From assembly GCF_001644705.1 (NCBI RefSeq), contig NZ_CP015137.1:1500001-1532000 (forward strand): a stretch of DNA of 32,000 nucleotides. The letters run 5' to 3'. A program made the translations under genes and the position numbers. Shown in pieces: positions 3-23,300 of the stretch (the first letter of the stretch is position 1; every line of letters begins with the position of its first letter). The DNA is from Dickeya solani IPO 2222 (GTDB lineage: Bacteria; Pseudomonadota; Gammaproteobacteria; Enterobacterales; Enterobacteriaceae). The notes beneath the pieces are model-generated. The model made no database searches. It was given only the letters and a program-made list of their open reading frames with translations, and was not told where the DNA came from.

Positions 3-1895
3 TTCTACGTGGTCAACGCGGTGGACATTGCACAACAGCTCGGGCTCGGCGGCCGCTTCAACATGATCATGCAGGCGGCGTTCTTCAAGCTGACCGGGAT
101 CATTCCCGCCGAGACCGCCGCCGACTACCTGAAAAGCGCCGTCACCCATACCTATGGCAAGAAAGGCCAGCACGTGGTGGCGATGAATCAGGCCGCCATC
201 GATCAGGGCATGTTAGCGCCGGTTCAGGTAGCGATTCCGGCGCACTGGGCCGACCTGCCGGAACCGACGGTCTCCGCCGCCGCGCTGCCCGAGTTTATCC
301 GGCGCATTCTGACGCCGATGAACCGGCAGGAAGGCGATAGCTTGCCGGTCAGCGCCTTTACCGGCATGGAAGACGGCACCTTTCCGCTCGGCACCGCGGC
401 GTTTGAGAAACGCGGCATCGCCATCAGCGTGCCTGCCTGGCAGCCGGAAGGCTGCACCCAGTGCAACCAGTGCGCGTTTATCTGCCCGCACGCCGCCATC
501 CGCCCGGCGCTGTTGACCGACGAGGAGCGCGCGCTGGCGCCCGACACCCTGCTCAGCAAACCGGCCACCGGCGCCAAAACCCTGCACTATCATCTGGCGG
601 TGTCGCCGCTGGACTGCTCCGGCTGCGGCAACTGCGTGGATATCTGCCCGTCGCGCGGCAAATCGCTGACCATGCAGCCGCTGACGTCGCAGCAACCCAA
701 AATCGCGCTGTGGGAACAGGTGCTCGGCCTGCAGCCCAAGCCGAACCCGTTCAATAAAACCACCGTCAAGGGCAGCCAGTTCGAGACGCCGCTGCTGGAG
801 TTCTCCGGTGCCTGCGCCGGGTGCGGCGAAACCCCGTACGCCCGGCTGGTGACCCAGTTGTTTGGCGACCGCATGCTGATTGCCAACGCCACCGGCTGTT
901 CCTCCATCTGGGGCGCCAGCGCGCCGTCCATCCCTTATACCGCCAACCACCGCGGACACGGCCCCGCCTGGGCCAACTCGCTGTTTGAGGACAACGCCGA
1001 ATTCGGGCTGGGGATGCTGCTTGGCGGCAACGCCATCCGCGAACAGTTGGCCAGCGACGCCGCGGCGGCGTTGATGCGGCCGCTCAGCCCGGCGCTGACC
1101 GACGCGCTCAATCTGTGGCTGGAGCTGAAAGACCGCGGCGACGGCACCCGCGAGCGGGCCGATCGAGTCATCGCCCTGCTTGAGCATGAAAAAGGCGACG
1201 ACCCGTTGCTCAACCGTCTCTACCAAAACCGGGATTACCTCGCCAAACGTTCGCAATGGATTTTCGGCGGCGACGGCTGGGCTTACGACATTGGCTTCGG
1301 CGGGCTGGACCATGTGCTGGCCTCCGGCGAGGACATTAACGTGCTGGTGTTCGACACCGAGGTCTATTCCAACACCGGCGGCCAGTCGTCCAAATCCACC
1401 CCGGCGGCGGCGATGGCGAAATTCGCCGCCGAAGGCAAGCGCACCCGCAAGAAAGACCTCGGCCTGATGGCGATGAGTTACGGTTACGTGTACGTGGCGC
1501 AGGTAGCGATGGGCGCGGACAAGGCGCAAACGCTACGGGCTATCGCCGAAGCGGAAGCCCACCCCGGCCCGTCGCTGGTCATCGCCTACGCCGCCTGCAT
1601 CAACCACGGACTGAAAGCCGGCATGGGGTGCAGCCAGCGGGAAACCCAAAAGGCGGTGGAGTCGGGATACTGGAACCTGTACCGCTTCAACCCACAACTA
1701 CAGGCGGCAGGCAAAAACCCGTTCACGCTGGACTCCGACGAGCCGGAAGCCGATTTCCAGGACTTCCTGATGGGCGAAGTTCGCTACAGCGCACTGCAAC
1801 GCCAGTACCCGGAGCTGGCAAGCCAACTGTTCGCCAAAACCGAGCAGGACGCCAGGGCGCGTTTCGAGCACTATAAACGTCTGGCGGAAGGGTAA
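3..1895 (+). CDS. nifJ: Pyruvate:ferredoxin/flavodoxin oxidoreductase (PFOR, NifJ/YdbK family), C-terminal ~630 aa; the 5' end lies outside the window
   Basis: The frame is open from the window edge (FYVVNAVDIA...). It has two 4Fe-4S ferredoxin motifs (CTQCNQCAFICP, CSGCGNCVDICP), a TPP-binding motif (GGDGWAYDIGFGGLDHV...DTEVYSNTGGQSSK) and a C-terminal tail typical of enterobacterial YdbK. The stop is TAA at 1893-1895. Confidence 0.93.
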   Translation, partial: FYVVNAVDIAQQLGLGGRFNMIMQAAFFKLTGIIPAETAADYLKSAVTHTYGKKGQHVVAMNQAAIDQGMLAPVQVAIPAHWADLPEPTVSAAALPEFIRRILTPMNRQEGDSLPVSAFTGMEDGTFPLGTAAFEKRGIAISVPAWQPEGCTQCNQCAFICPHAAIRPALLTDEERALAPDTLLSKPATGAKTLHYHLAVSPLDCSGCGNCVDICPSRGKSLTMQPLTSQQPKIALWEQVLGLQPKPNPFNKTTVKGSQFETPLLEFSGACAGCGETPYARLVTQLFGDRMLIANATGCSSIWGASAPSIPYTANHRGHGPAWANSLFEDNAEFGLGMLLGGNAIREQLASDAAAALMRPLSPALTDALNLWLELKDRGDGTRERADRVIALLEHEKGDDPLLNRLYQNRDYLAKRSQWIFGGDGWAYDIGFGGLDHVLASGEDINVLVFDTEVYSNTGGQSSKSTPAAAMAKFAAEGKRTRKKDLGLMAMSYGYVYVAQVAMGADKAQTLRAIAEAEAHPGPSLVIAYAACINHGLKAGMGCSQRETQKAVESGYWNLYRFNPQLQAAGKNPFTLDSDEPEADFQDFLMGEVRYSALQRQYPELASQLFAKTEQDARARFEHYKRLAEG

Positions 1896-1994: not shown

Positions 1995-2711
1995 TCATTC
2001 GGCGAATGTAGCGGAGCAAGCCGTTAACTCCACAACCGTGACATACTGCCGCTCAGGCAATACTCTAAAATAACCACGTGCGGTTTTACCTTTGACAAGC
2101 TGCGGACTCAGTGTCTCTTTTAAGACAAAATCCATACTCTGGTTAACAAAATCAATCTTGAATATTGAAATCGCTTCAAAACCAAAATAGTGACCAACAT
2201 TCCCGTAAGCCGCCTTAAAAAAACTTTCTTTGAGGGAAAAGAATAAGGTAAAACATGCCTGAAACCGCGCAGAGTCAGCCGAAATCAACGCAATTTCATG
2301 CTCATCAAGCGTTTGTGCCAGTACATTGCTAATTACCTCATGGCTGATTTCATCTTCAACATCAATGCCGACACCGATTTTCCCCGTAGCATCGCCGACC
2401 AATGCCACTGCCCGGTTATGACAATGGCTGATCGAGCCGATCATCCCCTCTGGCCAGAGCGGCTCACCACGCTCGCCCCGACCGATATGCCGCACATGAA
2501 TCCCCCATTTTTTTAATGCCTGTGCGGCACAGAAACGACCCGCTAAATACTCAGCGCGCCTTTTGACCACGGCGCGGTCCAAATACCCGGCTTTATCTAT
2601 CTGATATAAATGGAACAAGCTATCGTGATAGTGTTCTCTGGCAAAAATACAATGATAAAGTTCAAAGTCGGTCTCAAACCAATCACCGGACCGATTTTCC
2701 TGAAAAAACAT
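1995..2711 (-). CDS. 4'-phosphopantetheinyl transferase, EntD/Sfp type (activates the PKS carrier proteins)
   Basis: 238 aa with PPTase motifs GSISHC, GIDVE and FSLKESFFKA. An AAGGA RBS lies 8 nt upstream of the ATG at 2711. It is the last gene of the minus-strand operon. Confidence 0.9.
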   Translation of the reverse strand: MFFQENRSGDWFETDFELYHCIFAREHYHDSLFHLYQIDKAGYLDRAVVKRRAEYLAGRFCAAQALKKWGIHVRHIGRGERGEPLWPEGMIGSISHCHNRAVALVGDATGKIGVGIDVEDEISHEVISNVLAQTLDEHEIALISADSARFQACFTLFFSLKESFFKAAYGNVGHYFGFEAISIFKIDFVNQSMDFVLKETLSPQLVKGKTARGYFRVLPERQYVTVVELTACSATFAE

Positions 2712-2762: not shown

Positions 2763-3893
2763 TTATACCGGTTTTAGCTCATCCAGTTCGAAATAGCCGT
2801 TATAACCTTTCAGATAGATCGCCGCACGGTGCTGAAACAGCAAAACAGCTTCTGTCCGGGTCTCCACTTCCGTATTCAAAATACTGGAGCGAACCTTTTG
2901 CCCGATCTGGAACCGGCTGTTCCATTGAGCAACCTTCTGGGCCGCCGCTAGCGTTCTGTTATGCATCGACCCGTCGGTAGATTCAGCAGCATTCGCTCCA
3001 TCGGCGTCACGTTGTAAGCGAATGGCCTGTAGTTCGGCTTCTGTCGTCTCTGCTTTTATTTTCTCGACCAGACTACGCACCACTTCACTATGACCCAATT
3101 CCGTAAATTCAACCGTTCCCAGGCTCATTAGATACTGGATACTTTCGGCCCAGCGAACCGGGCTGGCAATTTGTTGAGCCAGACAGCTAAACAGCGTTTC
3201 ATCCTGATATGGCCGGGCCGTGGTATTGGCAATCACCGGGATTTTCAACGCCGAGAACTGAAAGTTTTGCAGGTATTTTTCAAATTTCTCCATTGAGCCG
3301 CGCATTAGCCTGGAGTGAAAAGCACCACTGGTATTTAAGGGAACATATCTGATGTTGCTATGTTCGAAGTCATCTGCGGCATTCATGATATCGTTACGGG
3401 GACCCGAAATCACAATTTGCGATGGCGTATTAAAGTTAGCTAAATCAATATGATCTAGCCTTTTGGTTTTCAATAATTCCCGCACCTGAGCTTCACTCGC
3501 TCCCAGTACCGCCGCCATACCACCGCCGTCGGCCTGCCCCATCAATTCACCGCGTTTTTTCACCAGCTTCAGACCAGTGGCAAAATCAAAACATTCTGCG
3601 GCCAGCAATGCGTTAAATTCGCCTAAGCTATGGCCTAAAACAAAATCCGGACGGGTGCCGGTTTCTTTCAGTTTCCTGAAATAAGACAGCGCATTGACAA
3701 CATAAATTGCCGGTTGGGTATATTGTGTCCGGTTCAGATTTCCGTCAGGATCATCAAGACAGAGTGTCTCAATGGAATAACCCAGAATCTCGTTGGCAAT
3801 GCGGGTCAAATCAGCAAACTGACCGAACAACCCCTCTCCCATGCCTCGTTGCTGGGAGCCTTGTCCCGGAAACATATAAACTCGAATTGACAT
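2763..3893 (-). CDS. Discrete (trans-acting) acyltransferase, malonyl-CoA:ACP transacylase type, with a ~95-aa C-terminal extension
   Basis: FPGQGSQ, GHS(89)LGE, R114 (KKRGELM) and GAFHS(190-194) form a malonyl-type signature. A GGAG RBS precedes the ATG at 3893. Residues 281-376 lie beyond the AT fold. Confidence 0.9.
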   Translation of the reverse strand: MSIRVYMFPGQGSQQRGMGEGLFGQFADLTRIANEILGYSIETLCLDDPDGNLNRTQYTQPAIYVVNALSYFRKLKETGTRPDFVLGHSLGEFNALLAAECFDFATGLKLVKKRGELMGQADGGGMAAVLGASEAQVRELLKTKRLDHIDLANFNTPSQIVISGPRNDIMNAADDFEHSNIRYVPLNTSGAFHSRLMRGSMEKFEKYLQNFQFSALKIPVIANTTARPYQDETLFSCLAQQIASPVRWAESIQYLMSLGTVEFTELGHSEVVRSLVEKIKAETTEAELQAIRLQRDADGANAAESTDGSMHNRTLAAAQKVAQWNSRFQIGQKVRSSILNTEVETRTEAVLLFQHRAAIYLKGYNGYFELDELKPV

Positions 3894-3961: not shown

Positions 3962-5881
3962 TCACGCCTTCAACTGCGACAACAGAGATTCAAGAGATTT
4001 CATCCCGTCACTGAACTGGTTCAATACATAGCCATGCCGGCAATCAATCCCTTTCGAATACTTCAGAAAGTTGGACAAACTGCCTGTAGCCGATACATCA
4101 ATAAAAAAGTGGTCCTGCATTGCCGTAAACGTCGAGCGGGCAAGGGCAGAAAAGTCAATTTTGTCTCTGACAATCTGCCATAAATACGCGCGAGCATCGG
4201 CTGGTTGTAACGAGCCGACGGACCGCCCCAATACAGACGAATACACGGGAATGGCAGGAGTAAAGACCGGTGTCTTATGCAGCAATTCCTGATATGCAGG
4301 TTTGATAGCGTCAATCGCATCCGAATGGAAGCCGTAGCGAACCGGCAGTGCGATCGACAGAATGCCTTTATCAGCCAGCTTCTGTTTAACGCCTGTTATG
4401 GCGGCGTGATCCCCGGAAATGAAGAAATTATTGTCGAAATTCACGCCGGCCAGCGTACAACGGGAAAAAACATCAGCGCAGCTATAGAAAATTTCCGGTG
4501 AGGCCAGTACCACGACCAAACCACCTTCAGGAGCAGACTGAACCAGCAAACGAGCCTGCTCAACAACCAACCGAAGCGCATCATCCAGCCGAAGCATACC
4601 GGCGACAACGGCAGCAATGTACTCACCCAAACTATGGCCGACAACGGCAGTGGGCTGGATGCCACGGGCAATCAACATCTGAGTCAGGCTGTATCCCAAA
4701 CAAAAGAGTGCCGGATGGGTATAGCGAATATCATCAAACTCAGTCCCGTAATCGCTTTCACCATAGAGTTTTTCCAGCAGATTCACGCCACTGAGCATAT
4801 GCACTTTGTGACACAGGCTGTCCATCGTCTGCCGGAAATGCCCATCACAATGGTAAAAAACCCGTCCCATCTGATAGTACTGACTCCCCTGACCTGCATA
4901 CATGAAAACACACTTATTCGGCGTTGCCGGTGTCGGTCCGATTGACTGATTCTGCATCGGATTGTCTTCCTGAATCGTGGTGGACACCGGAGAGACTAAA
5001 GGCGTAGAGCGCGCGTCGCCGATCGGCATCGGATCGTCGACAATACGCTGATGGAGTTTGGTCAACACCTCTCCGGGGCCGACTTCCATGAAATCATCAT
5101 AGCCTTGAGCCAGCAGCCAGGAGATCGATTCATACCAACGAACCGGATGGGAAATTTGCCGGGTCAACAGTGTCTGATACCCCGTGGAGGGATAAGCCCT
5201 GGCCGTTACATTCGATATAACGGGAACAGACAAGGGATGAAAAGTAAATTCAGCCAGGAAATCGGCAAATTCCCTCTCAATATCCACCATGCAGCGGGAA
5301 TGGAACGCCGCACTGACATTCAATTGGACAAAGCGTGCGCCGGCATCGAGAAAACGCTGTTCCAGCTCCGGCGCCAGCACTTCGTCATAATTCCCCGAGA
5401 TAATGCACTGCTGGCGGGAGTTGATATTGGCTATATCCACATGCTGAAAGCCGCTATCGGCCAAAATACGCTCAATCTCATCCAGATTAATTTCCAGCAA
5501 TGCGGCCATTGCCCCCTTCGGAGCCTGGCTCATCAACTGACCGCGTTTTTGTACCAGCCGAAGCCCGGTAATAAAGTCAAAAGCGCCGGCGGCAAACAGC
5601 GCGTTGTACTCCCCCAGGCTGTGTCCGGCCAGAAAATCCGGCGCCGCCGCTCCACGGGCCTTACGTTCCAGATAGGTCAGCGCATTCACGGTATACAATG
5701 CCGGTTGGGTATACTGAGTGTGGTTTAGAACCCGCTGAGGATCTTTCACACAAAGGTTGGCAATGTCATACCCGAGAACCTGATTTGCCTGAGCAACCAG
5801 CTCTGGATAGTGATCGAATAGGTCATAACCCATCGTACGATATTGCGACCCCTGCCCTGGAAAGGTATAGACTGTCTTCAT
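3962..5881 (-). CDS. Tandem AT-AT protein (two acyltransferase-fold domains; one may be an acyl hydrolase or an alternative-extender AT)
   Basis: 639 aa. Domain 1 has FPGQGSQ, GHS(88)LGEY, R113 and AAFHS. Domain 2 has YAGQGSQYYQMG, GHS(417)LGEY, R444 and YGFHS. Confidence 0.9.
   Translation of the reverse strand: MKTVYTFPGQGSQYRTMGYDLFDHYPELVAQANQVLGYDIANLCVKDPQRVLNHTQYTQPALYTVNALTYLERKARGAAAPDFLAGHSLGEYNALFAAGAFDFITGLRLVQKRGQLMSQAPKGAMAALLEINLDEIERILADSGFQHVDIANINSRQQCIISGNYDEVLAPELEQRFLDAGARFVQLNVSAAFHSRCMVDIEREFADFLAEFTFHPLSVPVISNVTARAYPSTGYQTLLTRQISHPVRWYESISWLLAQGYDDFMEVGPGEVLTKLHQRIVDDPMPIGDARSTPLVSPVSTTIQEDNPMQNQSIGPTPATPNKCVFMYAGQGSQYYQMGRVFYHCDGHFRQTMDSLCHKVHMLSGVNLLEKLYGESDYGTEFDDIRYTHPALFCLGYSLTQMLIARGIQPTAVVGHSLGEYIAAVVAGMLRLDDALRLVVEQARLLVQSAPEGGLVVVLASPEIFYSCADVFSRCTLAGVNFDNNFFISGDHAAITGVKQKLADKGILSIALPVRYGFHSDAIDAIKPAYQELLHKTPVFTPAIPVYSSVLGRSVGSLQPADARAYLWQIVRDKIDFSALARSTFTAMQDHFFIDVSATGSLSNFLKYSKGIDCRHGYVLNQFSDGMKSLESLLSQLKA
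4007..4918 (-). other. AT-like domain 2 of the AT-AT protein (divergent)
   Basis: Residues ~322-625: FMYAGQGSQYYQMG, VVGHSLGEYIAAVVAG, EQARLLV, RYGFHS. It follows a P/T/S-rich linker (residues ~290-322). Confidence 0.75.
5012..5881 (-). other. AT domain 1 of the AT-AT protein (malonyl-type motifs)
   Basis: Residues ~1-290: GHSLGEYNALFAAGAF, QKRGQLM, NVSAAFHS. Confidence 0.8.
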
Positions 5882-5990: not shown

Positions 5991-7454
5991 CTAAGAAGAT
6001 AAAGAGTGGCTTTCTATCAAACTGATTTGTCGTGACAACATCAATGCGGCTTCCTGCATCAACATTTCCCCGATTTCATTGACATGACGAGCACGCCAGC
6101 TTTCATAAGCAGAGCCTTTCACCCACTGATTGAAAGCGCCCAGAGCCGGCCCGCAATGCACCTGATAATCGACTTTGTTTTCCCGATCGCCAGCCAGCGC
6201 CAGGCGCGAGCTATAGGCAAAATACCAGCGAAATACCGCTGCCATTTTACGTTTGGGATGCTCTTCTATTTTCGCCAACACCTGAGGACGGCTCGCCTGA
6301 TAGTATTGCCTGACGTCTTGCCAGACATCGGATAGCGGACGTTTAAAGTACTTGTCTTCGAGCTGCTTTTTAACGACCTGCGGTATCGCTTCCAGCGAAG
6401 CATATTGTTGATAGAGCTGATAAAGTTTATTAGCCCGTGATGGGAAAAACACACCGCGCCGGAGCACCTGAACTTTGGCGCCCTGTTCAAACATATCTCC
6501 GGCCGGAGCATAATCGGTATCCTGAATATTGATACTTTGCAGTAAATCCTTCACCTCATCGCTGGTAGCCGCCTCCACCGAGCACTGATTCACGGAACCG
6601 GTGACAATAAAATCAGCACCAAGCATAAAAGCAGCCATCACCGCTTCCGGCGTACCAATACCACCTGCGGCGCCGATCCTGACTGGTTTTTGGTATCGCT
6701 GGCGGGCCGAAACATCCCGGCAAAGCCGGGAAATGGCCGGGAACAGTACATAAGCATTACCCTGATCGGTGTGGCCTGCCGAATCAGACTCGACACAGAC
6801 ATCCTGAGCCATTGGCACCAAAGGAGCCAGCTCAGCCTCCTGCCCGGTAATCAACCCTTGCTGATATAACCGGGCAACCAGCTCAGGCGGCGCCGGGTGG
6901 GCAAAAACCTCAGCAACTTCGGGGCGTGACACTTTCGCCATCAGCGTATTGGGAATAATAATGCGCTGATCTTCCCCCCGATGAACACCACACAACCGGT
7001 AACGCACTAACGCTGGGGTAATCGCAATATAGGCAGCCGCTTCAATAAAACGAATGCCGTGGGTCAGAAACAGCTCGACCCGCTGCATTTCCTTTTCAGG
7101 GAAATCATAATCTGCCAGCAGATTCATGCCGAAAGACTCCCCGCTCAAATCAGATTGAATCCCTAAAATCGCGTCTTCCAGAACACGAAGACTCAAGCCT
7201 CCTGAACCGAAAAAGCTCATCATTCCGGCCCGCGCCATCGCCACAACCAGCTTACGGGACGCAATCCCCTGATACATCGCACCGCTGACATAGGCATATT
7301 TAATCCCATAATCCTGACGAAACGCCGGACTTCCCAACTGTTCGGCCTGAACACGCTGCTCTTGTCGGCGGTCTACCCCCTGAGGGGGTAGACCTTCACG
7401 GCGTTCAGCCGGCCTCGTTTGTTCAACATGTGTCATCATCGCGCTCTCCCCCAT
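5991..7454 (-). CDS. Trans-acting enoyl reductase, PfaD / FMN-dependent 2-nitropropane-dioxygenase-like family
   Basis: LGSPAFRQDYGIKYAYVSGAMYQGIAS, FFGSGGL and RIGAAGGIGTPEAVMAAFMLGADFIVTGSVNQ are typical of PksE/PfaD-type trans-ERs. The true start may be the ATGATG at 7439/7436, which follows a GGGGGAGAG RBS, rather than 7454. Confidence 0.88.
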   Translation of the reverse strand: MGESAMMTHVEQTRPAERREGLPPQGVDRRQEQRVQAEQLGSPAFRQDYGIKYAYVSGAMYQGIASRKLVVAMARAGMMSFFGSGGLSLRVLEDAILGIQSDLSGESFGMNLLADYDFPEKEMQRVELFLTHGIRFIEAAAYIAITPALVRYRLCGVHRGEDQRIIIPNTLMAKVSRPEVAEVFAHPAPPELVARLYQQGLITGQEAELAPLVPMAQDVCVESDSAGHTDQGNAYVLFPAISRLCRDVSARQRYQKPVRIGAAGGIGTPEAVMAAFMLGADFIVTGSVNQCSVEAATSDEVKDLLQSINIQDTDYAPAGDMFEQGAKVQVLRRGVFFPSRANKLYQLYQQYASLEAIPQVVKKQLEDKYFKRPLSDVWQDVRQYYQASRPQVLAKIEEHPKRKMAAVFRWYFAYSSRLALAGDRENKVDYQVHCGPALGAFNQWVKGSAYESWRARHVNEIGEMLMQEAALMLSRQISLIESHSLSS

Positions 7455-7463
7455 TTAGTCTGT

Positions 7464-8291
7464 TCAGAAAGCGTCGCCTTTCATATCAAAGGGGGGATAA
7501 GCAGGAAAATCTGTCGTCGAAGGGTACTTACTGAAAGTCATCACCTCACGACCATTTGTCAAAACGGTATTGCTGCCACGTAATTCAAACTCATAACTCA
7601 CGTAACTTTGCCCTTCGCCCCAGAGTTTGCTGTGAGTTCTGGTATTAAACGTCGTTCGCAGACGGTCTGGAGATATCACCGCCATCTCATTCGACTCATA
7701 ATTAATAATGATCTCTCTCGGTTTATTGAAATCACTGGTCACCAGAATGTTATAGCTCCCGTAATACATCTGGTTCAGCGGTGTCGCCGTTTCACCGCTA
7801 TGGTTACCGGCCAGAGGAATTCCATTACTATCAAGTACCGAAATGTAGAAACCGCCGTCACGGGCAATCCAGCCTTCGGAGGGTAAGATAGTCCCGGCCA
7901 GCGAATACAGCCGATAATGGCCATCCGGGTTGCCGGTATATGTTTTCAGCTCAATACGTTTTTGAGCCAAGAGCGCCTCAACATCAATACCGAATTCGCG
8001 ATTAAAATAAGCAATCGCCTCTTCTCTTTTTTGTGCTAATTCACTCTCATTCAGCCCCATAATATGGGTGTAGAAATAATCACTGCTGCATAACGTTCCC
8101 TGACACCCGGATATGCCGGGGAATGGTTCAGTATTCGCAATATTGAGCGAGCCGGTCCCCATAAAAACCAGTACCTGCTTAAATCCCATGGGCTTAGGTA
8201 AACGCTCGCCGGCGTGCGCATTAAATGTCATCAAGGCCATAGAGAAAACGGCGATGGCAGCGGCTTTTCGTTTAAATTTATGTAACATCAT
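7464..8291 (-). CDS. Secreted/periplasmic protein of unknown function (Sec signal peptide, no recognised domain)
   Basis: The N-terminus MMLHKFKRKAAAIAVFSMALMTFNAHA|GE has a K/R n-region, a hydrophobic core and an AHA signal-peptidase I site, with no lipobox. A Cys pair (GCQGTLCS) sits near the mature N-terminus. A GGAG RBS lies 8 nt upstream. The gene is packed tightly between the PKS and the ER (gaps of 81 and 9 bp). Confidence 0.7.
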   Translation of the reverse strand: MMLHKFKRKAAAIAVFSMALMTFNAHAGERLPKPMGFKQVLVFMGTGSLNIANTEPFPGISGCQGTLCSSDYFYTHIMGLNESELAQKREEAIAYFNREFGIDVEALLAQKRIELKTYTGNPDGHYRLYSLAGTILPSEGWIARDGGFYISVLDSNGIPLAGNHSGETATPLNQMYYGSYNILVTSDFNKPREIIINYESNEMAVISPDRLRTTFNTRTHSKLWGEGQSYVSYEFELRGSNTVLTNGREVMTFSKYPSTTDFPAYPPFDMKGDAF

Positions 8292-8372: not shown

Positions 8373-11300
8373 TTAAACATCCAAGACCGTCAAGGTCGAT
8401 ATATCCTCTGGCGACAAACGTTCCGCCAGCATTGTTGGGACAGGAATTTCATCCACTGTCAGTTCTGGCTGTTCCACCATCATGTCCAGTAAGACCAGCA
8501 CGTGGTCGGCAAGCATTTGGATCACGTCCGGTGAAAAATAACTACGGTCATACATAAACGGCAGGCTCAGCTTTCCGTGGGTTTTCAGCAAACCAATCAG
8601 CAATGGTGCGACAGGCTCCCTTTCTTCCAGCGACATGGGTAGCAATCTTTGGGCGAAAGTCGTCACCTCGACAAAGGTATCCCGGTCATTACTGTCAATA
8701 GAAAGGCTGCCCAACAGGGTATGGTCGTGGGCATCCAGCCCTTCAGGGGCGAGTTGCTGATGCAGTGCAACAAAATCAAAGTGCTTATATTTCTGTACTT
8801 GCAACAATGCTTCGTCATAAATGCGCCACACTTGCCGCAGGCTGAAATGAGCGTGCAGCGTTAACACCAGCGGAACCGATGAAGAGAAGTCACCGTAAAC
8901 CGGTTCAAATTCATATCGATCCCTGAGGTTATATGCCATCTGAATCGGCATATTTTCTCCGGTGATCCGATACATTAACGTCGCCAGAGCACAGGTAACG
9001 AGTTGTGTGAGCGTGGTATTTTGGCGACGATTTGATGACTGCAACCGATTAAGCATCTCATCAGAGATATCCAGAGAATAGGCACCCGCTTTTTCCGGCT
9101 TCCCATGCTGTTTATCCGGGCTTCTGCTCAGTGCGATCTGTTTATCCCGTAGCGTAAAAGACGTTCGTTTGTCATGTAATTTGCTCAACCAATATCGGGT
9201 CGCTATCTCCTGATGTTCCCCGAACTGACTCAAGGCAAAATGTGCATATTCAGCCGGCGGTTTGGGGCAATAAAAATCGATGCCGTTGCGCAGTGCTTCA
9301 TAGCGGTGATAGAGCTCTTGCAGAAACATGAACAAAGTAAAACCATCGGCATGGAAATGGTGCGTAACAAAGTAAACGGCCCCCAGATCGGCACCGTTAT
9401 GGGCAAGATACAGCTCAAACATCGGCATCCGATCCGCTTGAAACAACTGCGCATTGACTGATTTCTGAAAACCCGCGAATGTCTGTTCAAACGTTTCTCT
9501 GTCAGAAATATAAGGCCAACAGACTTCCCTGCATTCCAGTATTAAGGCGTCATGAACAACCTGTGCCCATTGTTGACCCACGAATTCAGCACCGGTTCTC
9601 AGAATTGCGTGGTGGCGGACCATATCGTTCAGCGCCTGATTCAGCAATGACAGGTCAACCGGCATATCTATCCAAAAGCCCTGGCCGATATTAAAGGTAG
9701 AGCGCTTTTTCACCTCGGTCTCATGCAGAATAAATGCCTGAATATGGCTGACCGGATAGTAGCGAACCCCCGTCTCTAAACACGACCATAAGCAATCTGG
9801 CCGCTTCACGCGATCAAGCGCATCCCCGGCACGCAGAGCGTTTCGGTAGAACTCAAAACGAAAACCTGTCGCTTCTTTCCAGACGCCGATTCCCTGCTGT
9901 AATAGCAGGCTTAATTCAGTACGGCCCAACGTCATATCCTCGACAGGCGCTGCCGCCAAAGGTAAAGCCAGCGAGACCGACTGAATAAACGCCGGGCGAT
10001 TCTCCGGCATAGCATTGAGGGACACGTGCTCCGACGCCGACGCTGTGGCGAGCGGATAATACGTAGAGAGCGAGGAATCGTGAGCGGTATTTCGTGGACG
10101 ATGGGCAATAACCCAGGCAATCTCCCCGGCAATCAACCGAAGCGATTCTTTCGTCAGCAGATGGGCATCAAACTCAGTAACAAAAGCTGAATTGATCCTG
10201 TTTAGCAGACGTAGTCCCAACAGTGAATCGATACCGTAGCGGGTTACCGGTTCATCCAGATCAATTTCGGCGACAGACAAGCCGGCCAGCTCCGCCAGCA
10301 TACCTGTCAGTTGTTGCGCCAGTTGTTGCGGTACTTCTGCCTGTTGTGATGCTGCCTGTTGCTTCGTTTGGAAATCGGTTGCCTCTTGGCGTAATGCCCC
10401 GGCAGGTCCCTTCCGGACGGCACCGGCCCAGCACAGACGTTTGTCAAAAGGATACCCCGGCAGCGATAACGGGAATTTTTCCGCCGGAGAATAGGCCTGA
10501 TCCATACGGATTTCAGCGCTGAAGTCAGGAGAAAAAAAGTCGACCCCATTGGCATATAACCGGGCCAGAGCCAACAGATTATCGCGGTTTGTCGGAGCGT
10601 GAACCGCCTGACGAACATGTGCAACAGCGGACGAAGCCTCGTTCCCGGCTAATAACTGACGGCCCGAGCTGACTTTACCCTGATAGCCGTTGTCCTCCTG
10701 AGTCAATGCTGCCCCGGCTATCACCTTATCCAGAAAAGAGTGCAATGCATTGGCGTCGGAAACCACACAGGCACACCGATATGAGAAATGACTACGGCGC
10801 AATAATAGGTTTGCTGACAGTTGTTTCAGATCCAACCCATGCTGAGCCCGCATAAAATCTTGCAGATCCCGACAGCGTTGCTGCAAAGCGCGCTCACTCT
10901 TTCCAGACAGCACAATAAACACCGGCGGTTCACCACCGTGCGCCGGTGACTCTCCCTGTAGCGATGATGCGTTCGAAGAGATATTTTCTGGAGACCACTC
11001 TCGTCCCTCCCGATTTTTGTGAGGTTCAGCCACAACAAGGTGAACATTGATCCCCGTCGCCCCTAACGAGCTGATCGCCGCCCGGCGAACCTGTCCAGAG
11101 TCGACCGTCCAGGGAACGGTTTTCGAATTGATATAAAATGGACTTTGTTCCAGCGGTAGCAAAGAGGTCCGGTCTTCCGTATTCGGCGTTCCGGGAATGG
11201 TCCGATGCCGGAGCGCTAACAGCACTTTGAATAGATGATTCATCCCCGCACTGTGGAAAGCATGGCCGATGTTGTTCTCAACGCTCCCCAGCGCACAGAA

Positions 11301-14300
11301 TGGCTGCCTGCCTGATTGAACCAGCCCACCATTCTGCCGAAAGACGTTTGTCAGCGATTCAACTTCTGCGGCATCCGCGGCAGGCATCCCGGCGGCATGG
11401 GCTTCGACCAGAGTGATACTCTGCGGGCGGATATCAAACCGCTGGTATATATCAGATAACAGTTCTTCCTGAGCGCTGGCGCTCGGAGCCATAATCCCAT
11501 TGGTTTTACCGTTGTGATTACTGCCCCAGGCTTCGATCACACCATGAATTCTGTCGCCATCTGCCAGCGCCTGCTGCAATGGTTTTAGAATAACCACGCC
11601 AACAGACTCTCCGGGCATCATGCCAGTGGCATGTGCCGAAAACGCACAGCCACGGTCAGCCGGAGACAACAGTCCGAGACGGGAAGAACTGAGCAACATA
11701 TTCGGTGTGGAATAAATCAGGGCCCCGCCTGCAATCGCCACCTCACACTGGCCCAACACCAGCTGATCACAAGCCTGTGCAACAGCCAACAGCGAAGAAG
11801 CACAACCTGCCTCTACCGTCAGACAAGGCCCTTTCAGGTTCAGGCTGTAAGAGACCCGTCCGGGTACCTGAGACAAGGTAATATTCGGAGCGAAATGCTC
11901 TCCCTCGGCAAAACGTAGCGTATAGTCTCCCCCACTCCCACAGAAAACCCCCCAACGCTTGCCGGACAACGTCTCTGGAATAATCCCCGCATCTTCAATG
12001 GCTTTCCAACTTTCCTGTAAAAACAGGCGCTCACAGGGGTCTAACATTGATGCTTCATGCGGCGATATCTGAAAAAATAGCGGATCGAAATGTTCGACAT
12101 CAGAGAGAAAACCGCCATAGCCGGCATATTCACCATAATTCCCCGGGCTAACTGACCACCCGCGACTCTCCGGTGGCGCGGTAAACGCTGATTGCCCCTG
12201 TTCGAGCAGATGCCAGAAGTCATCGGGATTTTTCGCCCCGGGAAACTGCCCGGACATGCCGATAATCGCGATATGATCTCGGCCCTCCTTACGCGGCTGC
12301 GCTGCCCGTTTCCCGCTTTCACCCGGTGTGGTTTTCCCGGCAGACTTGCCCCGGTAAACCGCCCGACAGCGCTCAGAAATCATTTCAACGCTCTCGCGTT
12401 CAGACAAGAGATGAAAATGATCCCTGGCTTTGGTACGAAATACCTGAGCCCCCGGTAAATAGTGTAGCCATCGCTGACAATGGCTTTCATCGTGAGTCAG
12501 TTCTTCACCCAGAACATGACGATTATTTTCAGCCAGCGCAGACAACTTGCCTTGGTTCTCCGGTCTGTCATCGTATGATGATGTAATCGTCACATAGTGC
12601 AGGTCAATATCATGGGCATTCGGTAACGCGTTCACCGAATAGGCAGCCATAGCTTCGCGGTTGTGTTTAAGGATTTGAGCCATATTCTCAATTTTGTCCT
12701 TCACAACCGATAACGGCTGCTGCACTCCTTTTTTCAGGCACCCTTCAGCCAGCCATGTCACTTGTTTATCTACATCAACACGCATTAATTCCTGTTCGGT
12801 GTAGGCGATCGTGTCAAACGCTATCTGACCTGATGCCAACGCTTCACTCATGCTGTAGTGCAAAAAGAAGTTCGCACTCATCAGTAATGCATCTCGATAA
12901 TAAAACGGTGACGACGCGTGGTTATCCGGCTGCGGAAACGGGGGTTCCAGCAGAATCAGACTCGACACGCTGAACCCTGCCAGTTGCAGCTGTCTGGCCA
13001 TTTCATAGGCAATGATGCCGCCCATTGAATACCCTGCCAGCTCGTATGGCCCGGTCGCATTACTGGCTTGAATGATTTCAATATAGTAACGCGCCATGCT
13101 TTCGATGCTTTCCAGCGGCTGAAACCGGGTAAGAAATCCACGCGACTGAATTCCCCAGATGGCATATTCATCTGCCAGATTTTCAGCAATCTTCAGATAC
13201 AAACCCGTCGAGCCGGTCAGCGGATGAATCCAGAACCGTGAACTTTCAGGCGTCTGTTCATCTTTAATGTGTCTGTCCCGCAGTGGTTTGCTAAGAGGAA
13301 TGCACTCTGGATAGTGTCTCAGCCACGCTCTTTCCGGGCGCTGGCTTTGCAGTCCGGCTATTGTGTTGTCGGATGTCGCCTGCGAATCATCGGCCTCTTT
13401 TTTATCGCCTGTTTCGTGAGCGATAACCGACGCTGCCGCAAATGCGTTTCCCTGCCGGTTGATCGGCGAGGGCGGCATATGGTTGCCAAGATATAAAGAC
13501 AGCGCATCAATACTTGGGTAATCAAAAATGGCGTTGATCGTTAGCCCAGATGCAAACGCCCGGTTAACGGCTTCAATAAAGCCAACCGCATTGATTGAAT
13601 TGAGCCCCAGTTCGGTAAACAGTTGATGGTTCTCGATTTCACTCTCTTCAAAATACAGCGTTTGCATCAGTAAAGAGCGAACCTGACGGGTGATGGCGTC
13701 AAGCTGTGATGTGCCGCTTTTATTCACCGCAGCATCACCCGAAATCACAGCCTTTTTCTCACCAGTAACCGTAGACCGGCTGGTTACCTGGGTCTGAGCC
13801 GTTACCTCGGCAGGTGGAAGATTGGCCCAGTAACGTTTGCCCTGAAAAGGGTAGACCGGCAGACTTATCCGTTGCGGTACTCTCTGCCGCGGTACTCTCT
13901 GTTTCGGTACTATCTGTTTCGGTACTATCTGTTTCGGTACTATCTGTTGCAGCGAGAATGTCTCACGGTATAAATCAAACCAATCCACATTGACGCCGTT
14001 AACCCATGCATCCGCCAGTTCCTGCCATTGTTCCGCGGCGATCCATCCCTGAATCTGGGCAATCTGAGCCGGAGAGTTCTCCTCATCCCATTCATTCTCT
14101 CTTGCCGACCCGGTTACCTCATCGCTGCGTGGTTCGCCATGATAATACGCACCGGGAGCAATATCGCCGCGAATGAACAACGCTAATTTGTCACGCAGCT
14201 CCGTAGTATCAGACACCACAAAAGCCACTCGTTTTGCCATCGCATCTCGCCCGGTTTGCAGGCTATAGGCCAGTTGATCAAGCCGCGTTGCCGGGTGACG

Positions 14301-17300
14301 CTGCAGGAATTGCACAAAGGCCTGAGCATAGGCTTGCAGCGCTGCGGTGGTTTTCGCCGAAATAGGGACGAGCGACGGGCGTGCGGCGATGCCCAACGGA
14401 CGCCGGGCGCCCTCTTTCGGCGGATAGCTATCCGTTCCTGTTAAAGATTCGGGGTCATCGGCAATGTATTCTTCAATCACCGCATGAGCATTGGTGCCGC
14501 TGATCCCCGTCGCGCTGATTGCGCCAAGCCTGGGCTGCTTGCCCTGACGCAACCAAGGTTGATTCTGTTGGTGAATCGTAAAGGGAGTCCGCTCTAATTT
14601 AATGTAGCGGTTACAGGTATCAAATCTATGGGTTGCCGGAATCGTCTGATGAGCCATCGCCTTGAGCATGGCAATGAGGCTCACGACACCGGAAGCGGCA
14701 AAAGTATGCCCAATTAAGGGTTTAATCGAGCCTAAAACACAGCGATGCGAATCGCTGCATCGGCCGGCAAAGGCATCGGTGAGCGCCTGAACCTCAATCG
14801 GGTCACCCAACTGAGAACCGGTGCTGTGGGAAATCACATAGTGAATATTTCCCGGGTCAATCCGGTATCGGTCATAAATATTTTTCAGCAGTTCAGCCTG
14901 GCGAACCGGGTTCGGCGCCGTGATGCCATTGGTTTTTCCATCGTAGTTCACCCCGCTGGCTTTGATGCAGCCATAGATTCGATCGCCATCGGCTTTGGCT
15001 TTTGACAACGGTTTGAGTAAGACTACTGCGACAGCTTCTCCCAGAACCAGCCCATTTGCGCGTTGATCAAACACGCTGGCCTTGCCGTCGGGAGAAAGCA
15101 TTCCCGTCCGGTTCATACTCTGGTACACCCACGGAGTCATCAACAGATTGATTCCTCCGGCCAGCGCCATCTCACAATCCCCCTGACGCAGCGCCAGACA
15201 CGCCTGATGAACAGCAACTAACCCTGATGCACAAGCGGCTGTGAGGGCCATATTCGGGCCTTTCAGATCCAGCGCATAAGAAATACGCGCTGCCAGGGTC
15301 GCATTTTGATTACCGTTTATCGACCCCTGATCGCCGACAATAGCGCCATAATCACTCTCTTCCGCGCCGACATACACACCACAGGACATTCCCCGGATGC
15401 GTTGCCCCATATAGCCGGCATCCTCAAACGTGTGCCAGGCTTCCTGCAGGAAAATGCGCTGCCTGGGGTCCATATCCATCGCGTCTTTTGGCGCAATATC
15501 AAAAAATGCGGCGTCAAATTGCATGATATCCGTCATGAAAGCGCCCCATTGCGGGAGCGTTTCATGCTTATCCCGATCTTCTGACGATCCAGACGGCATG
15601 CTATCGGTGACAGACTGCCAGTCCCAGCGCGGTCCTGACATCTCACCAATACAACTTTCTCCCTGAATCAGTTTCTCCCAGAAGTCATCAATATTATCCG
15701 CCTGCGGAAAACGCCCGCTCATCCCAATCACGGCAATCGGCTCATCCATGACGTCTGAAGCAACCGTGTTGGTTGCCGCAGGAGCCGACTGATGATTCTC
15801 CGTGGTTGTCTTCATCTGCCCGAGCTCGTGGCCCGACGTTGGATTGACGTCTTCCCGCTCGACAGTCAGGTGATTGCTGTCAACTAGCGGGGACATGCTG
15901 ACGGTGTCCGTCTCCGGCGACACCTGACGCGAAAACATGGCATCTAAAGCCTGTGCATGTTCACGACAAAAATATTCCGTCAGCCGTTTAACCGATGAGT
16001 GACCGAAGAGCACAGCAGGCGTGATTTCAACATCAAAATATTTACTCAACTCCCGGGAAAATGATGCCAGCGAGATCGAGTCAAAACCAAAATCAGCAAA
16101 ACTGCTATTCAACCCGATCCGGTCAACCGGCGTGCCCAGTAACCGGCTAATCTGCGTTTTCAGGACGTTACTCACTTCTGTCCGCATGCCTGTCGCATCG
16201 GCGGGCAGCGGTGCACTATGCCCTCCGGAACGCGATGCCGTCTCATGGTCGTGTTTTTGCCCCGCATCACGGATAGCCGCTTGATTGGCGATATCTCCCT
16301 TGCCGCTTACCGGATGATGTTCGGTACGTCCGGCTACCGGCTGTTCTTTCAGCCCCAGAAACCGGGCAACACGACTGGGTTTTCCGGCCATCACCAGATG
16401 TTGCCCTTCGCTTTGCCGCAGCAGTTGTTCAAACACCAGCAACCCTTCTTCGCTTTCAAGGGCGCGTTGGCCACTGGACCTGAGATAAAATTCGGCGCTA
16501 TCCCTGTCACGGATGCCCATTTTCCCTTCTTTCCAGAAAGGCCAGTTAATAATCAGTGTTTTACCACGAAGTTTGCCTTGTTGAACCTGCGCCATCCGGT
16601 GTTTGCCATACCCCATCTGGAAACGGTTCCCCATGGCGTAATCACAAGAGCCAAAATCGCCTAAGAACGCGGCGCTGGAGGAAAAATAACAGACAAAATC
16701 CAACGGGTCCTGCATCAGCAGTTCGTCTAATAATTGCGTCCCTTCAACTTTCGGCCGAAGAATATCTTTGAACGCCTGGCGGGACTTCTCAAATACCGGT
16801 TCACTGGCTTCCAACCCGGCGGTGTGGATAACACCGAGGATCGGCCCCATCAATTGTCTGGCCTGTACCAGATTGAAACGCATGGCGCCGACATCGCAGA
16901 CATCGGCCTGGATATAATGTACCTGCCCCCCCAATTGGGTCAGTTCATCAGCAATCGCTTTGCGGTCTGTATCCATCGCTGAACGCCCGGTCAGTATCAG
17001 CCTGGCTGAATACTGCTGTGCCAGATATCGGGCAAAAATTAATCCCAGCCCACCGAATCCGCCGGTGATCAGGTAGGTTCCTCCTTGTTTAATCCCTGCC
17101 TCTGCCACCGCTGGCTCGGCCAGAGAAACCGGACTGGGTTGAACTTTCAGGATGTATCGCTCGGTGCCTTCATAGCAGACACTTTCGAAATGTTGCCCCG
17201 TCAGCTCCTGATAAAGTATTGATACATAATGTTTAGTGAAAACCGATTGTTTAGTGAAGACCGACTGTTTAGTGAAAACCGGCTGCCCGGTAAACGTCGC

Positions 17301-20300
17301 TTGTTCTCCGACCATACCGGATCCCGGAGCAACACTAACGGCAACCGCACATTGGGTTTTAGGTAATACGGAGGTCAGGGAACGTTCGATACCAATCCAT
17401 GACTCCAGATAAGCACGCTCCAGCGAATGGTGGCTGACACCAGCCAGCAGTAAGCGAGCCGGAGCCATGTTTGTCGCAACCATAGAAGACAACAGCACAT
17501 GTAGCGCGGCGAAGTCTTGTATCTGACCACGCGCCTCCAGTGGCCATAGATATAAAATCGCACTGTGTTGAGGTTGTATCCCGGCAGATTTCAACTGTGC
17601 AAAACAGTGCTGATAACTTTCGGTGTTTTCCTGCGTTGTATCTTGTTGTGGCAGATGAAAACCGCTCACCCCCTCTTCCAGCGCAAGGCGGGATACGAAC
17701 ACAATCGCTGTCTGTGGCGCCAACGCTTTCATCTGAGATTGCAGCAAACGCTGACTTTCCGGCTCCGACAAAAAGCAGATCAAGGTTTTAAACCCATGAT
17801 CTTGCGGGGATGTTGCCGGATGAGGCATCTTCTGCCAGGACTCGGTAAACAACATCAGCGCTTCACGCTCTTCTTGATGCGCTGATTCCGAAGTCAATGC
17901 AGTAGGGGATGATGTATCGGCAGGTGAGGTATCACGAGCAATCCGGCCCAGATCTTCCGGCGCCTGAATCCAATGCCTCTCTCTGGCAAACGGATAACCT
18001 GGCAGGCTGATACGACAGGGCGTCGCTATCGGGTATAGCTGATACCAGTCCACATGAAAGCCTTCCGTCCAGAACCGGGCAATCTTGTGAACGGCATTTT
18101 GTTCTACCCAGCGATGAAGCAGAGCGGTGCTGTCATCTGCTGACATAAATCCCGTATCCCGGCCACTTTCCCTACCGCCACCGCCACGCCAGCAGCGCTC
18201 AGGTAAGACGTCATCCTCGGCAAATGCGACCAGTTTTTTCTGTAACTCCCTGAGATCCTGTACGACAAAAACCACCCGCTCTTCCAGAACCCGCCGTCCA
18301 ACTTGCAGCGTGAAAGCCAGATCCGCAGGATGAATGCCGTCGATATCCGGGTGAGTCTCCAGGAACTGTGCCAGATTTCGGGCCATAACCCGAAGCCGCT
18401 CTTCATTTTTTGCCGATAAAGGGACAATTTTTGCCGATAAAGGAACGTCTTTCGCCGATAAAGAGGCAACCAGCGGCGTATTGTGCCGTTGACTGTTCTC
18501 CGATCTCCGGGAGAGGTGTGGCAGAAACTCTTCAACAATCAGGTGTGCATTCGACCCGGTGGCGCCAAACGAGCTGATCCCCGCCCGCCGCGGGACGTTG
18601 ATCTTTTCGCCTTCTTCGCCCACCGTCGGTTGCTCCCAAGCCTGGGTTTCACGCTGAATATAGAAAGGCGAATTATCCAGTTCCAGGTAAGGGTTAACCT
18701 GCTCTGAATGTAACAGTGAAGGAACCAGTGTCTTATGATGCAACTGGAGAATAACTTTGCTTAGCCCACTGATACCCGCCGCCGACTCAGCATGGCCGAT
18801 GTTCGATTTAACCGAACCGATCGCGCAAAACTGTTGGTCTTTCGTGTGTTGTCTGAAGGCTTTCACCAATCCCTGAACTTCGATCGGATCGCCCAGCGCC
18901 GTCCCCGTACCGTGCGCTTCGATATAACTGATGGTTCGTGGGTCAATTCCGGTTTTTTCGTAGCAACGCAACATCAAATCAGCCTGTGCAACCGGGCTTG
19001 GTACCGTAATCCCGCTCACTTGCCCAACGTGGTTGATGGTGCTGCCCTTGATTACCGCATAAATATTGTCCCGATCCTTAACCGCCTGCGACAGCGGTTT
19101 GAGCAATACAGCCCCCACCCCTTCGCCAGAGACAAAGCCATTGCCGCCGTCACCGAAAGTTCGGCAACGACCATCGGTGGAATACATATCGGCCAGCCCA
19201 TAAGTCATATACTTATAGGGATGCAACGACAGGTTTACCCCGCCGGCTAATGCAATTTTACTTTCTCCTCTGTGCAGACTTTCCAGAGCCAGATGCAACG
19301 CGGTCAGGGATGAAGAGCACACCGTATCTACGGCAAAAGAAGGGCCGTGGAAACCGCAGAAATAAGAGACTCGGTTAGCAATGGGGGCATAATTCATCGA
19401 TAGCGGCATTACCTGACCGCGATTGACGATTTCAGACGCGATCAAGGCGTAATCATTATGCATTACCCCAACAAAAACACCGACATCACGGCGCTTATTA
19501 AGCCCCTGTTCTGCAACCAGCGTCTCCGGGGTGTAGCCCGCATCTTCGATTGCCGCCCAGCATGTTTCCAGAAATAATCGTTCCTGAGGATCTAACCACT
19601 GCGCTTCTCTGGGAGAAACCCGGAAAAACTGTGCGTCAAAACAGTCCACATCCTCGATAAATCCCCCCCATTGAGGAATCGGTCGGCCAGAAGGCGACGT
19701 AATGCCATCCAGCACGCTTTTCTGCCATCTCGACCCAGGAATTTCGGTCACACAGTCCTTACCGGCTTTGAGATTCTCCCAAAACTCAGCCATATGTTTC
19801 GCACCGGGATAGCGCCCTGACATCCCGATCACCGCAATATCTTCGCTTTCCGATGCGTTCTGTATGATTGATGATGAATGGGAAGCGGCCTGCCTGGCGT
19901 TTATCGGCTCACTACCGGCCTGATTGATGCCTGCTGAAATGCCCGAATCCGGTAACGTACCCGATGCCAACTGATGCGCGTTGTCCCGTTCTGTGACCGT
20001 TGCAACATCAGGCGCCATGTCGGCAAGCGACCTGAACGATTCCGGGTACCGTTCCAGCAGATACTCGGCCAGTGCACCGACGGTGGCATATTCAAACAGT
20101 AAAGTCGGATTCAGCTTTACCTTGAGCGACTGTTCCAGTGACTGCACCATTTGCAACAGTCCCGCCGAATCCAACCCCAACTCGTAATAACCGATATCGC
20201 TCTCGATCTCTTCCGTGCTTTTCGCCAACGTATCGGCAAGTATCTTTTTCAGAATATTTTCAGCACGTTCCAATGCTGAATCATTCTCATCCGACGATAT

Positions 20301-23300
20301 GGATAAAGTCTCAGATGCCACAGGCAGGGTTCCATTCTTCATAGGCACAACTGGTTTGATAGGCATAACGGCAGACTCAGCGACCTGAGCCGCACGGGTT
20401 CTTGATGCGTTGATAGCCGCAGGGTCACGCACTCGCTTACAGGTGAAATTTTTCAGCTCACCAATCTTTTCACCGCCTGGCTTAAAAAATTCCATAGTCA
20501 GGTAAGAGAGTTGCTCGGTTTGCTTCAGTGATGCACGGCTGACGCGGGTAATACAGTGTCCCGACAGCGGTTCTGACGCGCGGAAAGACTCGTAATAAAG
20601 CGGCAAAAATATATCCTGCGCTTTGTTTTTCTCCAGAAACAGATCCCCGGACCCGATAGCACTACCGTCAATCAGAACCGGGTGAAACAGATAATGTTCT
20701 GCGCCGAAGAGTGATTCGTCTGGAACCGCAATATCGATCAGGTTTGCCGAAGGCAGGTGATAGATAACGCCGTCGCCGACCATCGGCCCGCAGTGACGGA
20801 TATCTTCTCCACCAAATTCCACATACGCGTCCTGCAACCTCATCTGACTGATTGCTGTCTTTTTCAACCCATCTACATCAAGTGTTTCATTAAATACCGA
20901 CACCGGAACTGGGTGCATTTCCGCACTCATATACAGCTTCAATCCTGACTGCTGTTGATCATCCGATACTTCCCGGCCTTCAACTTTCAGATGCCAGTAC
21001 CCTTGCGTGCTCTTTTGACAGCTGATTTGTGCATCCACCCCATAGTCATCACCGATAGTAAAGGGGTAATGAATCGTTAGGTTGCGCATTTCCAGTTGGC
21101 GGTAATCCATGCCCTGCCGATGGAAAAACTGAAACAGCAGATCGATGTATGCCAGTCCGGGCAGCAGCGATTGCCCAAACGCCTGATGGTTATGCAAAAT
21201 GCGGTGATGGTGGTTAAAAGGTTGACTCCAGGGGTGATTTTCCGTGAAGAACCCCGCACGGCCGATGGGGTAACGCCCCTCTTCAATGAGGTCGCCGTCG
21301 CCAGCGCTTTTTTCAGCCACGCCGGCTTCAGATGCAGGCAACGGGGCACGAAAGACGTCTTTCGCAAATACATAGCCGGGCAAATGAATTCGCGCTGGCG
21401 GTTGCAGATAGAAACTTTGCCAGTCAACCGGTTTTCCCTGCAGCCAAGCCTGTCCAATCGCTTCCAGTTCGGAACGGGACAATGAGTGTAGACGGCGATG
21501 TTGATAAGCATCGGCGGCCAGAGCTTGTTGTTTTCTTCCCGCAATCGGGGCGTGCCCGAAAAAATGATCCGTCGATATCTTCTGACGGCAGAATGCCTGT
21601 AACTGTTGCAGACAGTCGCGATGATCTTTTGCAATCAGAAAGAAGCGTTCTGGCATCGCTTCCCGTCCGACCTGCAACGTATAGGCTATTGATTGTATAA
21701 AGGACAAGGCATCATCGTCTGGTCCGCTATTTTGCCAGTCAGTACGTTGCCGATCCGCATCTTCAAGGTAAGCACACAGTCCCTGAATCTGAGCTTGCAG
21801 ACTTTGCGTCGTTTTGGCCGATAACGGAATAATCCAGCCTGCGGTAACCGGTTCAGTTGCTTGTACCCGATCCGGTAAATACTCTTCGATGACCAAATGT
21901 GCATTGGTCCCGCTGTGACCGAAAGAGTTCAGGGCTGCCAGTCGCGGCCTGTCTGCGTGGTTTTTCCACACGGACGTGGTGTTTTGAATATAAAAAGCGG
22001 AATCTTGCAACTCAAATAACGGATTTATCTGCTGATAATGCCTTAAGCCCGGTAGTTGACGATGACGCATCGACAACAATATTTTGATAAGCCCAATCAC
22101 TCCAGAAGCTGCCGATGTATGGCCAATATGAGATTTCACGCTACCCAGAGCACAATAATGCTGCTTGTCGGTTAATGCCTTAAATGTTCGCGCCAGGGCA
22201 TTGACCTCAATGGTATCCCCCAATTTACCGCCGGTAGCATGAGCTTCAATGTAACTAATCTCTTCAGGATTGATGTGGTATTTATGGTAGACCTGCTCCA
22301 GTAATTGTTGCTGAGCCGTTCCACTCGGAGCCGTAATACCGTTGCTCGCTCCATCCTGATTCATTCCAGAGGCACGAATCACCCCGTAGATGGGATCGCC
22401 ATCCGTGATAGCCTGATCAAGACGTTTCAGTGCGACTATCCCGATCCCTTCAGATAACAGCATGCCGTCGGCCATCTGCTCAAAAATGGGACATTCTGCG
22501 CGATGGGACAACATGCCGATACTGGACAAACTTGCCAACGCCCCGGCATCCAAAGCAGCGAAAACACCACCGGCCAGCGCCAGATCCGTCTCCCGGCGGC
22601 GCAGACTTTCACAGGCCAGATGTATCGCCACCGCAGAAGATGAACAGCCGGTATTCACAACCAGCGCCGGACCTTTCATATCCAGAAAATACGACACACG
22701 TGATGCAATAATCGCTTCAGACGAGCCAACAAAAGAGCCCTGATGGTAATTCGACGGTTCCGCACCAATAAAAACACCCGTATTGGTGCCAGCCAGAACC
22801 TTGGGGTTATAGCCCGCATCTTCCAGTGCTTTCCAGCTTTCTTGTAACACCAATCGCTGATGTGGACTCATCGACAACGCATCCTGATCGGTAATCCGGA
22901 AAAATTTCGCATCGAAGCAGTCTCTGTCTTTAACGATCCCCCCCCATTTGCAATAGGTTTTTCCGCTCTGCGTTGCGTCTTCTTTACCTGTATCGACTTT
23001 GTCTGTGTCGACTTTGTCTGTATCGACAAAATATCTGGTTTGATCCAGATAATGTTCGGGTAATTCTTCAATACCTGAACGATGTGCAGCCAGGTTCTCC
23101 CAAAAATGCCGGGTATCCTCAGCACCGGGGAACTGCCCTGCCATACCGATCACCGCAATTGCAGCCGGTTCGATTGGCCCCTTTTCTGGTGTCGGCCCCG
23201 GATCATTTATGGACGCTGGCAATGTGGCAGACGGCGACACCGCTGCAGGCTGCGGGGCGGGTTCCAACCGCGGTTGCAATTGCGGCTGAGGTTGAGAGGG

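Follow-up and report, generated by a model that had tools for sequence, protein, structure and literature searches.

On the basis of its sequence, the condensation (C) domain that closes the protein OocS in this Dickeya locus very probably releases the chain as a macrolactone, OocS being the last megasynthase in the biosynthesis of the antifungal macrolide oocydin A (haterumalide). Since macrolactonization by the ACP-C portion of OocS has been published, the acceptor of the chain is predicted to be an internal hydroxyl rather than water, an external alcohol, an amine, or an aminoacyl-PCP. The gene, the product, and the role of the C domain are already known from the literature, and an active-site mutant as well as the use of the domain as a portable offloading part are likewise in print. 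The addition made by the present analysis is the recurrence of the KS-ACP-C arrangement in other giant polyketide synthases (PKSs) and of ACP-C in BryD.

Based on its synteny with the known producer Serratia marcescens MSU97 and on the published carriage of ooc in Dickeya, the window, i.e., the whole stretch of 32,000 nucleotides analyzed herein, was assigned to the ooc cluster for the trans-AT PKS of oocydin A, of which it covers the 3' end from oocR (as listed) through oocW. The genes concerned are as follows.

25291..31971, minus strand: oocR (as listed), 2226 aa, KS-DH-ACP-KS-KR
8373..25298, minus strand: oocS, 5641 aa, MT-ACP-ACP-KS-DH-ACP-KS-KR-ACP-KS-ACP-TE-KS-ACP-C (Pfam)
7464..8291, minus strand: oocT, 275 aa, directly after oocS, no known family
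5991..7454, minus strand: oocU, trans-acting enoyl reductase-like (Pfam FabD_helical_ins and NMO; synteny)
3962..5881, minus strand: oocV, tandem trans-acyltransferase, 639 aa (Pfam Acyl_transf_1, two stretches; synteny)
2763..3893, minus strand: oocW, trans-acyltransferase, 376 aa (Pfam Acyl_transf_1; synteny)
1995-2711, minus strand: Sfp/EntD-type phosphopantetheinyl transferase (PPTase), after oocW

S. marcescens MSU97 is a reported oocydin A producer, and strains of D. solani and D. dianthicola have been described to carry ooc and to show antifungal activity (PMC4552970). The same study named OocR and OocS as PKSs, OocT as a hypothetical protein, and OocU as a flavin enzyme resembling PksE/DifA. 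The enoyl reductase-like protein, the tandem acyltransferase, the single acyltransferase, and the PPTase encoded downstream of oocS together constitute a trans-AT PKS accessory set. The names oocV and oocW are tentative, being assigned from gene order and the cluster map.

When one genome per species was scanned, the same C domain was detected in three genomes only, namely those of D. oryzae ZYY5 (89% identical), S. marcescens MSU97 (75%), and Serratia sp. NPDC078593 (72%). As revealed by tblastn searches conducted for each domain and gene, the order TE-KS-ACP-C, OocT, OocU, OocV, and OocW was collinear in all three genomes with identities of 64-93%, the lowest of which (from 64%) were partial matches to the last ACP; the protein identities given for this conserved order as a whole are 71-93%. 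The C-terminal domain order, the downstream genes, and the HHFHADG and GYSMG strings were furthermore the same as those of S. plymuthica, and both strings and the ACP serines were conserved in all the Dickeya and Serratia orthologues. A word-indexed search, which returned five matches, gave "polyketide synthase, partial [Dickeya dianthicola]" (92% identical) as the closest named protein to the C domain. At closer range, the window was 100% identical to GCA_013339815.1 over 18.3 kb and 99.995% identical to CM001839.1, which is presumably strain MK10 of D. solani, and an exact-sequence look-up found OocT in many assemblies.

Several further observations were made on the locus. The product of oocT showed no match in Pfam or NCBIfam, and its N-terminus, read from the sequence by eye, has a Sec-type signal-peptide pattern (MMLHKFKRKAAAIAVFSMALMTFNAHA/GE). 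In each of the four species the gene adjoins oocS, with identities of 72-84%, and an oocT deletion mutant of S. plymuthica has been reported to behave like the wild type in bioactivity (PMC4552970). The PPTase gene had no counterpart in two Serratia loci, and its first 42 aa alone found a match in D. oryzae ZYY5; this pattern points to a gain specific to the lineage or to decay elsewhere. The stop codon of oocR and the ATG of oocS overlap by 8 nt (25291-25298), which suggests translational coupling of both megasynthase genes. Between positions 1-2000 and 2001-32000 of the window, the G+C content falls from 63-66%, as measured within the pyruvate:ferredoxin oxidoreductase gene at the flank (9..1895, plus strand), to about 47-55% throughout the PKS region, a drop consistent with a horizontally acquired island.

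In addition, in-frame tandem DNA repeats with periods of 12-21 nt were present in oocS and oocR, where they encode short and apparently interdomain peptide repeats such as IVPKQ (five copies), SVFTKQ (three copies), PLSAK, VDTDK, and TEVK (five copies), with five copies of SSSDKQ at the OocR tail. They lie at 13866-13948, 17230-17285, 18407-18463, 22988-23027, 24094-24134, 25316-25407, 26602-26631, and 29498-29561. In one other strain, the linker that precedes the last ACP carries an extra QQAEI-type repeat block (about 10327-10361 of the window), and the linker length therefore differs between strains (OocS of 5661 versus 5641 aa).

The tail of OocS follows the order KS-ACP-TE-KS-ACP-C, and its features relevant to chain release were located as follows.

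12399..13238, minus strand: TEB, thioesterase-fold domain, aa about 4021-4300 (Pfam PF00975)
13020..13034, minus strand: TEB active-site GYSMG
10929..12296, minus strand: last KS, aa about 4335-4790, with Cys 4499, EAHAAGM, and NIGHAFH
10119..10331, minus strand: last ACP, aa about 4990-5060 (Pfam PP-binding), phosphopantetheine Ser in YGIDSLLGL
8445..9764, minus strand: condensation (C) domain at the OocS C-terminus, aa 5179-5618 (Pfam PF00668)
9342..9362, minus strand: HHFHADG active-site motif, aa 5313-5319, same in four Dickeya/Serratia orthologues

The Condensation profile PF00668, which has 456 positions, aligned to the terminal domain from position 4 to 445 and scored 133.4 bits (E=1.3e-38), the curated cut-off being 30.6. 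This full-length match and the presence of both the Asp and the second His of HHxxxDG place the domain within the NRPS condensation-domain superfamily. Recognizable versions of all the core motifs C1 to C7 were also found on reading by eye, and the HHFHADG string begins at aa 5313. The original prediction of a C domain with its core motifs and an intact HHFHADG was thus borne out by the profile match and both kinds of motif, and its numbering of the active-site residue as H5314 was correct. Its statement that the protein stops after the C domain, with no A-PCP, also held: the stop codon of oocS lies at 8373-8375, right after the C domain, and the next ORF is the 275-aa oocT with its signal-peptide-like N-terminus. 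In NCBIfam, the C domain matched nothing more specific than generic NRPS/PKS families. By sequence, the closest solved structures were the bacterial elongation C domains of McyB, bacitracin synthase 3, and PvdL (E about 1e-16), and the ester-forming SgcC5 (4znm) gave a weak match among the PDB sequences (E=9e-6).

A stand-alone C protein of the VibH, SgcC5, or Bamb_5915 type was rejected as an identity for the domain, which is fused within a single ORF of 5641 aa. In the region equivalent to 8373-12000, CM001839.1 has 1 indel and JABAOQ010000001.1 has 3 relative to the window, owing to which OocS is called there as split ORFs and an ACP-C protein of 891 or 710 aa looks free-standing. Such split calls of OocS are an annotation trap when stand-alone C domains are sought.

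An intact HHxxxDG motif without an A-PCP in cis would also suit a C domain that condenses the chain with an external amine, alcohol, or aminoacyl-PCP in the VibH or enacyloxin manner, as suggested in the original prediction, and release modes using external nucleophiles do exist in other pathways. This reaction is, however, highly improbable for OocS. No AMP-binding (adenylation) domain was found by Pfam in the ORFs of at least 150 aa in the window, the carrier domains detected there by Pfam were PKS ACPs only, with no PCP among them, and no NRPS component figures in the cluster as described in the literature. Among the PDB sequence matches to the C domain at E<=0.01, neither VibH nor the enacyloxin C protein (Bamb_5915) appeared. 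Furthermore, oocydin A is not known to carry an amide or a foreign ester at C-1.

The literature on the Serratia orthologue bears directly on the function of the C domain. Substitution of HHFHADG by HHFHAAG in S. plymuthica A153 resulted in the loss of oocydin A (PMC4552970), which shows that the C domain is required for oocydin A and, being evidence of requirement only, is silent on the reaction type. The active-site mutant proposed earlier as a check therefore has an equivalent in S. plymuthica, in which the product is abolished (PMC4552970). As to the reaction itself, PMC11260071, citing Hemmerling 2022, describes the OocS ACP-C didomain as offloading the chain by macrolactonization. When ACP-C was grafted onto a truncated OocR, the product was one C2 unit longer and was identified as a macrolactone by NMR (PMC11260071). 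The earlier proposal that a terminal C domain off-loads the chain with no A-PCP is in agreement with these reports, cyclization having been one of the options listed, while its view that the acceptor is undefined fails, given that PMC11260071 assigns macrolactonization to the OocS ACP-C. These experiments were performed in Serratia plymuthica, and the Serratia C domains compared herein, neither of which is from S. plymuthica, were 72-75% identical to the Dickeya domain.

The same engineering study also speaks to hydrolysis of the chain by the C domain in the crocacin manner, with the lactone formed later, either spontaneously or via another enzyme. Free acids of stalled intermediates were indeed seen in the engineered strains, but those acids arose without ACP-C, and the addition of ACP-C shifted the output to the macrolactone (PMC11260071). 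We accordingly give hydrolytic release very little credence. The ring of oocydin A is 14-membered, and spontaneous closure at this size would be chemically unlikely.

The in-line thioesterase upstream of the last KS, which was absent from the original prediction, offers another candidate for ring closure. Mutation of its GYSMG to GYAMG led to the loss of oocydin A (PMC4552970), and PMC12979598 reports that OocS TEB O-acetylates a 3-hydroxythioester and is devoid of hydrolytic activity. The TE region matched PDB 7r0x ("Polyketide synthase") with E=1.1e-169, and this entry is probably the published TEB structure. By analogy, TEB in the Dickeya protein is predicted to be an O-acetyltransferase and not a release domain. 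The reversed assignment, with ring closure by the in-line TE and O-acetylation of the 3-hydroxyl by the terminal C domain, was left open by Matilla et al. (2012 and 2015), but is very unlikely now that O-acetylation has been assigned to TEB and thioester hydrolysis found absent (PMC12979598). In addition, an engineered line that had ACP-C but not the TE yielded a released macrolactone (PMC11260071), and the C domain stands at the very end of the protein, where a release domain would be expected.

Between TEB and the C domain lies the last KS, in which the catalytic Cys (EAGCASS) and the two His (EAHAAGM and NIGHAFH) are all present, with HAAGM in place of HGTGT, as in all the orthologues. Its HGTGT/GDP region is degenerate (HAAGMPAADAAE), and likewise in all the orthologues. 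In four of the five related KS-ACP-C cassettes described below, the first catalytic His is replaced by Asn (EANASGL or similar), a replacement by which non-elongating KSs (KS0) are usually recognized. Moreover, oocydin A bears its acetoxy group on C-3, in the beta position relative to the carbonyl of the lactone, so that no C2 unit can be added after TEB acts. Considering the Asn in the four related cassettes and the C-3 acetoxy chemistry, the last KS is probably a transfer-only, non-elongating domain, against which its intact Cys-His-His triad speaks. The original prediction had likened the divergent KS and its ACP to a KS0-ACP-C hand-over of the kind seen at PKS-to-NRPS junctions; calling the KS divergent is reasonable in view of the degenerate HAAGM, but the junction is not there. 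A PKS-to-NRPS junction was rejected on the grounds that OocS ends after the C domain and that the window ORFs of at least 150 aa hold no AMP-binding domain.

Taken in sequence, the proposed reactions at the OocS tail would run as follows. The KS-KR-ACP module would make a 3-hydroxyacyl thioester, the chain would move to the ACP beside TEB, and TEB would O-acetylate the 3-hydroxyl, as published for Serratia. The last KS, with its degenerate HAAGM, would then transfer the chain, unextended, onto the final ACP, from which the C domain would receive it in finished form. There, the second His of HHFHADG would serve as the general base activating a hydroxyl located distally on the chain itself, and this hydroxyl would attack the ACP thioester so that the macrolactone leaves, a step published for the Serratia orthologue and transferred here by orthology. 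Neither an A-PCP partner nor an external nucleophile would be necessary for release.

An exhaustive HMMER search was used to place the C domain among its relatives. The nine closest relatives of sufficient length for its position to be judged (36-61% identical) all have the domain at the extreme C-terminus. Seven of them are giant PKSs (3476-6850 aa), and the other two are short proteins ending in ACP-C. Three shorter fragments (44-68% identical) join the same C-domain group, and the next relatives after this group were multi-module NRPSs at about 23% identity. In five of the giant proteins, the whole KS-ACP-C cassette of about 1200 aa was found at the C-terminus, with KS identities of 55-59%. 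According to a cluster look-up, the owners of the cassette are Gynuella sunshinyii YC6258 (WP_044617474.1), a Bryobacterales MAG (MBL8214817.1), and three further proteins. BryD shares ACP-C with OocS within its C-terminal about 650 aa, and its best KS match lies far upstream. The in-line TE had no BLAST match in the five KS-ACP-C giant proteins or in BryD. One metagenomic ACP-C protein is encoded on a 3.4-kb contig, too short for context.

Among the known systems, the OocS proteins of Serratia (S. plymuthica A153 and 4Rx13; S. marcescens MSU97) are the nearest, having the same TE-KS-ACP-C order, HHFHADG, GYSMG, and oocT-oocW; they differ in that the host here is Dickeya, that a PPTase follows oocW here, and that the copy numbers of the linker repeats vary between strains. 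BryD of the bryostatin pathway from Candidatus Endobugula sertula has a similar terminal ACP-C (C domain 37% identical, HHFCADG), and the PKS of G. sunshinyii YC6258 has a similar terminal KS-ACP-C (C domain 43-45% and KS 57% identical, HHFHADG). Unlike OocS, both are devoid of an in-line TE acetyltransferase, and they belong to other pathways with other products. The papers that could be searched yielded nothing on the BryD condensation domain and no function for either of these two C domains. Meoded 2018 contained nothing on OocS, and the lobatamide paper had no bearing on the C domain.

More distant parallels were drawn by description. The terminal C domains of lasonolide LasO, palmerolide PalD, phormidolide, and basiliskamide, for which a cyclizing release has been proposed from sequence only, share with OocS a C domain in last place, the lack of a release TE, and a proposed ester-forming release. 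The terminal CT domains of fungal NRPSs, which form amide bonds on peptidyl chains to give cyclic products, share the terminal C-fold and the internal nucleophile, and differ from OocS in the amide bond. SgcC5, VibH, and enacyloxin Bamb_5915 share the C-fold, the HHxxxDG chemistry, and the absence of a cis A domain, but they are free-standing and use external or separately tethered nucleophiles.

These relationships raise the idea that KS(0)-ACP-C is a mobile termination cassette defining a distinct macrolactone-forming C clade across unrelated trans-AT PKS macrolide pathways, for which we consider the case evenly balanced. Such a clade, which is structurally uncharacterized, may span oocydin, G. 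sunshinyii, the Bryobacterales MAG, and uncultured lineages, with BryD joined through its ACP-C.

For the annotation of trans-AT PKSs, a terminal C domain without an A-PCP should be read first as a macrolactonizing release domain, and a TE found in line upstream need not be the release domain. The recurrence of KS-ACP-C and ACP-C could aid product prediction and the choice of offloading parts for engineering, and, if the proposed clade is real, it could predict macrolide products from sequence and serve as a portable offloading part.
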